Positions 42,001 through 45,000 of a DNA stretch of 64,000 nucleotides are shown here, in pieces. How positions within the stretch are numbered: position 1 is the first letter of the stretch; every line of letters begins with the position of its first letter. The DNA lies in the IMG/VR virus record IMGVR_UViG_2850773344_000009; one strand, 5' to 3'. Made by a program: the position numbers. This stretch comes from a virus (Duplodnaviria > Heunggongvirae > Uroviricota > Caudoviricetes).

Positions 42001-45000
42001 GATACACCAGGTCATGATGGGATTGCCATCATGATGAAAGCGCCCCGATTCAATTGCCGCTTCCAGCTCTTTCATCGGGTCGGACATGTTGGTGTAGTTC
42101 TGAATGATAGTGATGGGGTTCAGGTCTTCATCAGCAAGGTCATGTGACAACCCGGTCGCCCCGAAGGGGTCGATGGGTGACTCACTGACCGGGCTGATTT
42201 TGTTCGCCGCTTTGGCCTCCTCGAGGATGTAGCGATATGAGGTAGCCTGAGTTTAACGGACACTCCTTCCTGAAATAGAATGGCATCAGAAGGAGCTAAT
42301 AATGAGCAGAAAAACCCAACGTTACTCTAAAGAGTTCAAAGCCGAAGCTGTCAGAACGGTTCTTGAAAATCAACTTTCAATCAGTGAAGGCGCTTCCCGA
42401 TTATCCCTTCCTGAAGGCACTTTAGGACAATGGGTTACCGCCGCCAGAAAAGGGCTCGGTACTCCTGGTTCCCGCACGGTGGCTGAACTGGAATCTGAAA
42501 TTCTGCAACTGCGTAAGGCGTTAAATGAAGCTCGCCTTGAGCGAGATATATTAAAAAAAGCAACAGCGTATTTTGCACAGGAGTCGCTGAAAAATACGCG
42601 TTAATCGAACAATGGCGACAACAATTTCCCATTGAAGCGATGTGTCAGGTATTTGGTGTATCCAGGAGCGGTTATTACAACTGGGTACAGCATGAACCCT
42701 CAGACAGAAAACAAAGTGATGAGCGGCTAAAACTGGAGGTTAAGGTGGCACATATCCGCACTCGCGAAACATATGGAACCCGGCGGCTCCAGACGGAGCT
42801 GGCAGAGAATGGCATCATCGTTGGTCGTGACCGACTGGCACGTCTTCGTAAGGAGCTGAGGCTACGCTGTAAGCAGAAACGCAAGTTCAGAGCGACTACG
42901 AACCCGAACCACAATCTGCCAGTTGCGCCAAATCTGCTGAACCAGACGTTCGCTCCTACAGCACCAAATCAGGTCTGGGTGGCGGACCTGACGTATGTTG
43001 CCACACAGGAGGGATGGTTGTACCTCGCTGGCATCAAAGATGTTTATACGTGCGAAATTGTCGGCTACGCCATGTAACGTTGAACCGCCCCGGGTTTCCT
43101 GGAGAGTGTTTTATCTGTGAACTCAGGCTGCCAGATCATCGTTTCCGATGGAAGCATAATAAGCTTTTTCTGCTTCTGCCGGAGGAGTATGGCCCAGCCT
43201 TTCCAGCAATCGTCGATTGTTATACCAGTCCACCCACGTGAGTGTGGCCAGTTCCACTTCTGCACGGTTTTTCCAGCTCTTACGGTGTATTACCTCCGCT
43301 TTGTAAAGACCATTGATGCTCTCCGCCATCGCGTTGTCATACGAGTCGCCTGTACTTCCTGTTGATGCCAGTAATCCGGCTTCCTTAAGCCGCTGTGTGT
43401 AGGCCAGCGATACATACTGAGAACCTTTATCACTGTGATGGACCGTGCCGGACGGTCGACGGGCCCATAACGCCTGCTCCAGTGCATCCAGCACGAATGT
43501 CGTTTCCATGGACGATGAGACCCGCCACCCCACGATGCATCCGGCAAACACATCAATGATGAACGCCACATAGACGAAGCCCTGCCATGTGCTGACGTAA
43601 GTAAAATCAGCCACCCACAGCTGGTCAGGTCGTTCTGCCACGAACTGACGGTTTACGCGGTCGCCTGCGGCAACGGCTTTCCGGCTGATGGTCGTACGGA
43701 CCTTTTTACCCCGGAGAACACCGGCAAGTCCCATAACCGCCATGAGACGTGCCACAGTGCATCTGGCCACTCTGATACCTTCCCGTAACAACTGACGCCA
43801 GACTTTACACCGTATACCTTGTGATTTTCATCGTATACGCGCTGTATCTCTTTCTTCAGCCAGTCATCGCGCTGCGCACGGGCACTGCGTTTATCCGGAT
43901 GATGTCGCTGTTGCTGACAGTGGTAATACGTTGACGGGGCAATATGCAGTTCGCTGCATAGCGGTCCGACCCCGTACTGCTCACGCAGCTTATCCAGCAG
44001 TGGCATCATTTTTTCCAGAGGCGGTCGAACTCCGCCTTCGCAAAATAAGCGGAAGCCTGGCGAAGGATATCGTTACTGCGGCGCAGTTCACGATTTTCAC
44101 GTTCCGGCTCTTTCAGACGCTGACGTTCAGCGGTGGTGAGCCCTCCATCACCGCCCCCGGTATCCCGCTCATGCTGGCGAACCCAGACACGCAGAGTCTC
44201 CGGCGTACAGCCAATCTTTGGGGCAATGGAACAAATTGTCGCCCATTGTGAGTCATATTCGCCCTGACTTTCCAGAACCATACGGACTGCCCGTTGACGG
44301 ACTTCGGGGGAAAAACGAGTATTTTTAGTCATCCTGTTTACCTCTTTCTCAGGAAGTTTAGTCTCCAGGATTCCCGGGGCGGTTCACGTTGGGTTTTTCT
44401 GCTCATTATTAGCTCCTTCTGATGCCATTCTATTTCAGGAAGGAGTGTCCGTTAAACTCAGGCTACCTCAACTCTCTTTTCAATAGGGTCAAGGTTTTTC
44501 ATCCCGCCAAGATCTTCTTCCACCTGTTTGAGCATTGACCTTGTTGATGGCGCATCAATTTTTGCACCTGCAGGCATCGCCTTTTCAACATTGCGATAAA
44601 GCTGGTCGCTTCGTTTCATCAGCGCAGACATTCTTCCATTGACCGTATCAATAAACTTGTCGCTCATACCAAGAGCATCTTTTGCACCGGAAACGCGATC
44701 AATTATCTCACCCGCGCCCTGTGCTAGCTGCCTGATTGCTTCATTTTCCTGCACCTGTAGAGCAGAACCCGCACGGGACTTGATTGCTTGCTCAACTGCC
44801 TTGTATTGCTCGTTCCCGGAAAAGTGTGAAGGGAGTAATGAATCAACATTAAGCCTTTCAGCAGACTCCAGAACTTCAGCCTGAGGATTGATATCTAGTT
44901 CATCAAGCGATGAAGCGAGATTTGGCCTTTTTTGTGCTGCTACTGTGCGAACGACTTCCTCTGGGTTCTTCGTCGCAGGCGTCATTGGTACACCTTGTGC

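Follow-up and report, generated by a model that had tools for sequence, protein, structure and literature searches.

An IS600/IS629 nest between an SfV-type and a P22-type prophage remnant in the SHI-O/thrW region of Shigella flexneri serotype 5

The closest described counterpart of the locus analyzed here is the SHI-O region of Shigella flexneri, in which a large remnant of phage SfV was reported by Nie et al. 2006, in passages of an article (PMC1550401) that also describe an IS629-mediated inversion around SHI-O between strains 301 and 8401. Sun et al. 2011 (PMC3306764) drew an int-IS600-IS629-yaiC arrangement. The thrW and proA genes of strain 8401 are located immediately to the left of the site that corresponds to position 1 of our window (the whole stretch of viral DNA analyzed here, 64,000 nucleotides), and we therefore assigned the window to the SHI-O/thrW region. 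Within it, positions 42238-44470 are occupied by a 2233-bp nest of IS600 and IS629 sequences that separates two phage virion modules. The outer coordinates given for this nest in the original prediction were exact to the base. We consider it quite probable that the nest is a multi-event IS scar in a thrW-side prophage graveyard (SHI-O) of S. flexneri serotype 5, and that it was built in the order proposed below.

The same nest was found in S. flexneri 5b strain 8401 (CP000266), 5a strain M90T (CM001474), the genome CP026799 and one JGI contig, the last of which was identical to 8401 across the 6 kb compared. The truncated IS600 OrfB protein of the window is identical to the M90T protein EID60835.1. 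Note that the gp16 remnant at the right of the nest runs into a contig break in IS600 in hundreds of S. flexneri assemblies made from short reads. The breakpoints were defined by alignment to reference copies of both elements. Every element of the predicted IS600/IS629/inverted-IS600 scar was present, and the alignment returned two IS600 pieces and one IS629, not a contiguous single IS. The features are as follows (window coordinates, strand, description).

360-1623, minus strand: full-length IS600 of 1264 bp, the inverted-repeat partner of copy A, used as internal alignment reference
41818-42237, minus strand: 3' remnant of a large terminase gene of SfV/SfI type, comprising the final 139 codons and the stop, cut by the left end of IS600
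42238-43074, plus strand: IS600 copy A, positions 1-837, with left inverted repeat and orfA intact and orfB cut
42302-42604, plus strand: orfA of copy A, 100 aa, intact, Pfam HTH_Tnp_1
42640-43077, plus strand: truncated orfB of copy A, 145 of 272 codons, Pfam HTH_21 and rve (profile positions 2-42 of 102)
43074-43080, minus strand: inverted positions 88-82 of IS600 copy B; the G at 43074 is common to copies A and B, and CGT at 43078-43080 is the left IS629 duplication
43081-44386, minus strand: IS629, 1306 bp, with both terminal repeats
43123-43791, minus strand: IS629 orfB, downstream fragment, the sole fragment with a Pfam rve domain
43653-44009, minus strand: IS629 orfB, upstream fragment (HTH part), split off by a 4-bp deletion
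43935-44051, minus strand: ALIL pseudoknot (Rfam RF01497) of the IS629 programmed frameshift, intact
44006-44332, minus strand: IS629 orfA, 108 aa, intact, Pfam HTH_Tnp_1
44387-44470, minus strand: IS600 copy B, positions 84-1, inverted; CGT at 44387-44389 is the right IS629 duplication
44458-46188, minus strand: truncated gp16-like ejection protein, 576 aa, with an N-terminal lytic transglycosylase domain

A pattern scan of the window with the 26-mer of the IS600 left end gave matches without mismatches at 42238 (plus strand), 44470 (minus strand) and 1623 (minus strand), when none were expected by chance. Copy A could be aligned to the full-length copy at 360-1623 over 837 nt with 3 SNPs (99.6% identity) and diverged after position 837. 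As had been predicted for the partial IS600, it ends within orfB, at 43074, and the TAA stop codon of this open reading frame was created by the junction itself. RefSeq labels the homologous E. coli copies as transposases of the IS600 family. The IS600 right end is absent from both copies in the nest, and neither contains a complete orfB or DDE (rve) domain. With two left ends and no intact transposase, the nest is predicted to be immobile as IS600. No 3-bp target duplication was found for IS600; the four IS600 ends in the window are flanked by AAA, ATA, AGT and GGG, and these unpaired flanks point to several separate events.

The sequence between copy A and IS629 was informative for the origin of the inverted fragment. 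The six bases TAACGT (43075-43080) correspond to inverted IS600 positions 87-82, so that IS629 does not follow the partial IS600 directly, as the original prediction had it; the intervening bases are derived from copy B. When IS629 and one CGT were excised in silico, 88 nt of contiguous inverted IS600 were recovered, with no SNPs relative to the copy at 360-1623. Because the IS600 sequence is contiguous on both sides after this removal, IS629 is nested inside an 88-bp inverted IS600 remnant rather than lying between two IS600 pieces. The predicted inverted fragment of the IS600 left end is indeed present to the right of IS629, but it measures 84 bp and not 70 bp. It also does what was proposed for it, in that the terminus of copy B ends the gp16-like reading frame with three codons (E-V-A) and a stop.

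The junction between position 837 of copy A and position 88 of copy B (837|88) is non-homologous, with one shared base, and is located 4 bp from the end of IS629. We infer that a non-homologous deletion formed it by joining two IS600 copies that had their right ends turned towards each other. That it lies so near the IS629 end may be due to chance or to an IS-associated deletion process. The exact junction pattern gave no matches in genome contigs or in metagenome contigs, and a looser pattern gave none in metagenome contigs and two informative loci in genome contigs. In addition, none of the genomes that we found has copy A at full length or retains the stretch between the two copies.

The IS629 copy is bounded by its terminal repeats (TGAACCGCCCCGG at 43081, with the complement ending at 44386) and by a perfect target duplication, CGT at 43078-43080 and 44387-44389, which represents IS600 positions 84-82. 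The ALIL pseudoknot was detected over the full model (1-117) at 120.2 bits (gathering score 50; E=1.1e-30). The element had been called complete, which holds for both ends, orfA and the pseudoknot, but not for its length, which is 1306 and not 1310 bp. The reference copy, that of 8401 at the same locus, is 1310 bp long, with orfA coding for 108 aa and orfB open over 296 aa. Compared with it, positions 579-582 are missing between window positions 43806 and 43807, which bears out the predicted orfB frameshift. The deletion falls at orfB codons 68-69, shifts the frame after codon 68 and lies upstream of the catalytic domain; the window copy is accordingly not a full-length 1310-bp IS629 with an in-frame orfB. 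As judged from its reading frames, it cannot make the fused transposase, and its movement would depend on another copy.

The same 4-bp gap was observed at this locus in CP026799 and CP020339, at the CP182556 and CP178302 loci described below, and in a copy on an S. flexneri 2a virulence plasmid. A 70-nt probe across the deletion had an ungapped alignment as its top hit in 114 of 2760 plasmid records, among them the virulence plasmid of M90T; for the E. coli records the figure was only 16 of 5458, and most of these were plasmids of 245-296 kb. By these sequence matches, the deletion is an allele that recurs on virulence plasmids of Shigella and enteroinvasive E. coli (EIEC) and is polymorphic at this locus. 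An origin of the lesion at this site is not required, as the allele was found at other loci, and the defective copy probably carried the orfB deletion before it arrived here. A more specific proposal, which we put forward tentatively, is that the 1306-bp form is a non-autonomous sub-lineage restricted to Shigella and EIEC that arrived defective, was spread between virulence plasmid and chromosome by means of intact copies, and was restored in 8401 by gene conversion. If so, the nest would be a natural record of a defective IS that was mobilized in trans and later repaired in place.

Between 41000 and 47000, the window differed from 8401 by seven SNPs and one indel, all inside IS600 or IS629, and no differences were present in the 3.8 kb of phage flank within this range. 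These IS-confined differences, the 4-bp polymorphism among them, may reflect gene conversion between copies of the elements or imperfectly assembled repeats. Such a concentration of strain differences in multi-copy IS sequence is relevant both to assembly quality and to gene conversion.

We also determined what each flank has retained. To the left, the terminase remnant was recognized by Pfam TerL_nuclease (E=1.8e-18, profile positions 185-284 of 286), and the flank was 98.2% identical at the nucleotide level to phage SfI, the match stopping exactly at 42237. This base corresponds to position 5038 of the SfI locus, inside the SfI terL gene (4619-6352); 139 of the 577 terL codons are left, and the first 438 codons together with terS are gone. 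Over a longer range, 23210-42237 was 97.5% identical to positions 20655-1873 of SfV (U82619), including gtrA, gtrB and gtrV. The SfV-type module has kept gtrABV and the genes from portal to tail, and its packaging and early region is incomplete, with terS, most of terL and every gene past SfV position 20655 missing from this module.

To the right, the gp16-like reading frame matched Pfam SLT (E=1.9e-25) and had a precomputed match to PF26808 (Phage_P22_gp16). It was 98.5% identical at the nucleotide level to Sf101_0013 (2736 nt, 911 codons) of the P22-like phage Sf101, and the match begins exactly at 44471. The gene order gp7-gp20-gp16 is present, with about 573 of 911 native codons kept in the gp16-like gene; approximately 338 codons were lost, along with everything downstream, including the tailspike. 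An IS911 at 57130-58379 truncates the P22-type module at the opposite end as well.

Other lineages provided information on the order of events. In CP020339, the gp16 remnant is followed by IS600 (1-84), IS629 and psiF, with a flank of GAT and no duplication. In CP182556 and CP178302, which are noisy, indel-rich assemblies with 90.5% identity to one another, IS600 running from at least position 798 down to 85 is followed by IS629 and then by GAT and adrA-proC. The sequence to the left of IS629 in these two reads CTCTTTAGAGTAACGT up to the IS629 end, and IS600 continues from there to at least position 798. Given that psiF and adrA are neighbors in the gene order of E. coli K-12, the CP020339 locus on the one side and the CP182556 and CP178302 loci on the other would be reciprocal products of recombination between this IS629 (CGT) and a second IS629 (GAT). 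This reading agrees with the inversion described in the passages of Nie et al. (PMC1550401) and with the arrangement of Sun et al. (PMC3306764). The insertion of IS629 into copy B is, on these comparisons, old and common to several lineages. Because copy B was still at least 798 bp long after the IS629 insertion elsewhere, the 837|88 junction is younger than that insertion and belongs to the serotype 5 lineage.

On this basis we propose the following order. IS600 copy B would have inserted into the gp16-like gene of an Sf101/P22-type prophage, after which a 1306-bp IS629 would have entered copy B at IS600 positions 82-84 by normal transposition, producing the 3-bp duplication. A second IS600 (copy A), with its right end facing that of copy B, would then have been fused to it by the non-homologous deletion 837|88, a step in which both IS600 copies would have lost their right-hand parts, along with any DNA between them. 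The claim that a single insertion cannot account for the nest is thereby upheld, as at least two IS600 insertions, one IS629 insertion and one non-homologous joining are needed.

The present contact of the two virion modules may have another cause. The integrase fragment at window positions 1-359 has its 3' end 13 nt from the 3' end of thrW, and its position indicates that integration at thrW puts the integrase gene beside the tRNA gene, transcribed towards it. The complete int at 22053-23213 (plus strand), the att site and gtrA (plus strand) are arranged in the orientation opposite to a thrW integration. Furthermore, the 40.6-kb segment 1624-42237 is bounded exactly by inverted IS600 copies that share 837 nt. 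This segment was probably inverted by recombination between the two IS600 copies, and the contact of the modules may be the result of that later inversion. Before it, the neighbor of the nest would have been the lambdoid early region with its lysis end (from 1624 on), and a separate IS600 event would have eliminated the SfV packaging genes, leaving behind the integrase fragment, one IS600 and the terminase remnant. Note that the un-inverted arrangement of 1624-42237 was not seen among the strains examined. The original prediction that IS events deleted the SfV packaging genes and the distal P22-type genes is consequently retained for its inventory of missing genes, but not for the events of the nest as their cause, as segment 1624-42237 was possibly inverted later.

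A single direct deletion between an SfV-type and a P22-type prophage in tandem could have produced much of this arrangement in one step, with IS600 A in the terminase gene and IS600 B in gp16 as the deletion ends; the SfV packaging and early genes, att and the P22-type tailspike region would have been lost together, and the left flank would be unchanged since. In its favor, serotype-converting phages are known to integrate in tandem at thrW (PMC3306764), the nest links the two modules directly, and the genes missing on each side match those that such a deletion would remove. However, the SfV-type module with int-att-gtrA is reversed relative to a thrW integration, so that at least one further inversion would be needed, and the reversed segment is bounded exactly by inverted IS600 copies. 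Besides, the gp16::IS600::IS629 remnant predates the junction, as it occurs without it in lineages whose P22-type module differs by 1.4%. We regard the one-step deletion as possible but tilt against it, in favor of the stepwise order with a later inversion.

Two further explanations concern the IS elements themselves. Recombination between IS629 copies in A and B, or a deletion adjacent to IS629, could have made the left junction, given that 837|88 is only 4 bp from the IS629 end and that IS629 x IS629 recombination took place at this very copy in other lineages; a recombinant or an adjacent deletion would nevertheless put foreign sequence against the IS629 end, as in CP020339, whereas here the CGT duplication is perfect and is preceded on the left by three or four further bases of copy B. 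This origin of the junction is very improbable. Movement of the whole 2233-bp block as a composite unit with two outward-facing IS600 left ends has still less to recommend it and is, in our estimate, next to negligible. Although the block has an intact IS600 left inverted repeat at each end, the two in inverted orientation, no target duplication surrounds it (left flank ATA, right flank ACT), the flanks come from two different phage types rather than from one interrupted gene, and in other lineages the right end gp16|IS600|IS629 occurs by itself. Among 5,426 complete E. coli genomes, none yielded a second copy of the block at 80% query coverage or more, and the hits of 65-68% in E. coli genomes were unrelated neighboring IS629 and IS600 copies in a different order. 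A fold-back or palindromic duplication of one IS600 was also considered and was ruled out, as the outer flanks are different phage genes.

In its present form, the locus has a terminase-less SfV-type virion/gtrV module abutting a tailspike-less P22-type module at the nest, so neither prophage would be expected to form particles. The base-exact breakpoints would explain why strains of the M90T/8401 type carry a non-inducible serotype-V-converting prophage in which gtrABV is kept. The IS copies remain substrates for homologous recombination, and the nest would mark the IS629 copy that served in other lineages as crossover of the known large inversion between S. flexneri lineages. On the whole, this is ordinary IS-driven prophage decay, in which the elements, the locus and the phenomenon are all already known, and the nest matters little beyond annotation.

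Compared with known systems, the locus is the same as the SHI-O/SfV remnant of 8401 and M90T, as 21.7 kb around the nest are 99.95% identical to CP000266; the passages of PMC1550401 considered here contain no description of the nest anatomy or of the P22/Sf101-type module. The window gene at the left is a truncated form of the SfI/SfV large terminase (139 of 577 codons), and that at the right is a truncated homologue of Sf101_0013, a transglycosylase at the gp16 position of P22. Copy A shares with IS600 (IS3 family, 1264 bp) the left inverted repeat, orfA and the 5' part of orfB, but the nest copies comprise only 837 bp (A) and 88 bp (B). The window copy of IS629 shares with the 1310-bp element (IS3 family) both terminal repeats, orfA, the ALIL pseudoknot and the 3-bp duplication, and differs in the 4-bp deletion, which would stop the fused transposase ahead of the catalytic domain. 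At this locus, the intact 1310-bp form is found in 8401, whereas the M90T-like window has the 1306-bp form. Shigella genomes are rich in comparable IS nests, and a similar one is present on the E. coli plasmid p93_0495-1 (NZ_CP074801.1), where a truncated IS600 is directly followed by an inverted IS629. Unlike the window nest, it has no inverted IS600 remnant; it represents an independent event at IS600 position 754, with an IS629 that is 94.7% identical and whose transposase is annotated as intact.

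Inverted IS600 copies were found at both borders of the 40.6-kb segment at 1624-42237 of the window, and the orientation of this segment was the reverse of that expected for integration at thrW, indicating that recombination between the IS600 copies probably inverted it. Among the genomes seen, no alternative isomer of the segment was found. Further features of the window outside the nest are as follows.

360-1623, minus strand: full IS600, which cuts the integrase 3' fragment at 1-359
10961-12307: IS4-family transposase ORF (DDE_Tnp_1) within the lambdoid early region
56080-57144: P22-type large terminase, N-terminally truncated
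57130-58379, minus strand: IS911, 1250 bp, truncating the terminase N-terminus
59473-60690, plus strand: 405-aa ORF, for which a Pfam search gave no match
61665-63538, plus strand: second lysis-type cassette, with a DUF1327 protein, a phage lysozyme and one more ORF

The integrase 3' fragment was 99% identical, as an inverted copy, to the 3'-terminal part of the complete integrase gene (22053-23213), and in S. flexneri 5b strain 8401 thrW lies 13 nt past this fragment. The IS4-family transposase ORF has cro-like and cII-like genes on either side, and the sequence beyond IS911 does not continue the terminase gene. Furthermore, part of the second lysis-type cassette (62566-62680) showed a 115-nt inverted similarity (89%) to the lambdoid region at 3121-3235. 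The cassette together with this similarity points to at least three prophage remnants in the window.

We compared the region around the IS600/IS629 nest (41000-47000) with the same locus in strain 8401. Seven SNPs and one indel were detected, all within IS600 or IS629, and the phage flanks showed zero differences. These IS-confined differences stem either from gene conversion between copies of the elements or from noise in the assembly of repeats. Against the same locus of CP026799, five clustered differences, including a 1-nt indel, were located at 41574-41582 of the window, in the 5'-terminal part of the SfV-type portal gene; owing to them, the portal gene is called shorter in CP026799.

Across 7 kb, the IS600-IS629-adrA-proC loci of CP178302.1 and CP182556.1, both species-representative genomes, shared only 90.5% identity, and more than 200 gaps were opened in their alignment; the two genomes are probably error-rich assemblies passing as separate species. 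On the E. coli plasmid p93_0495-1 (NZ_CP074801.1, 749-2810), IS600 positions 1-754 adjoin directly an IS629-like element in inverted orientation, which carries a transposase gene with an intact annotation, and this nest is an event independent of that in the window.
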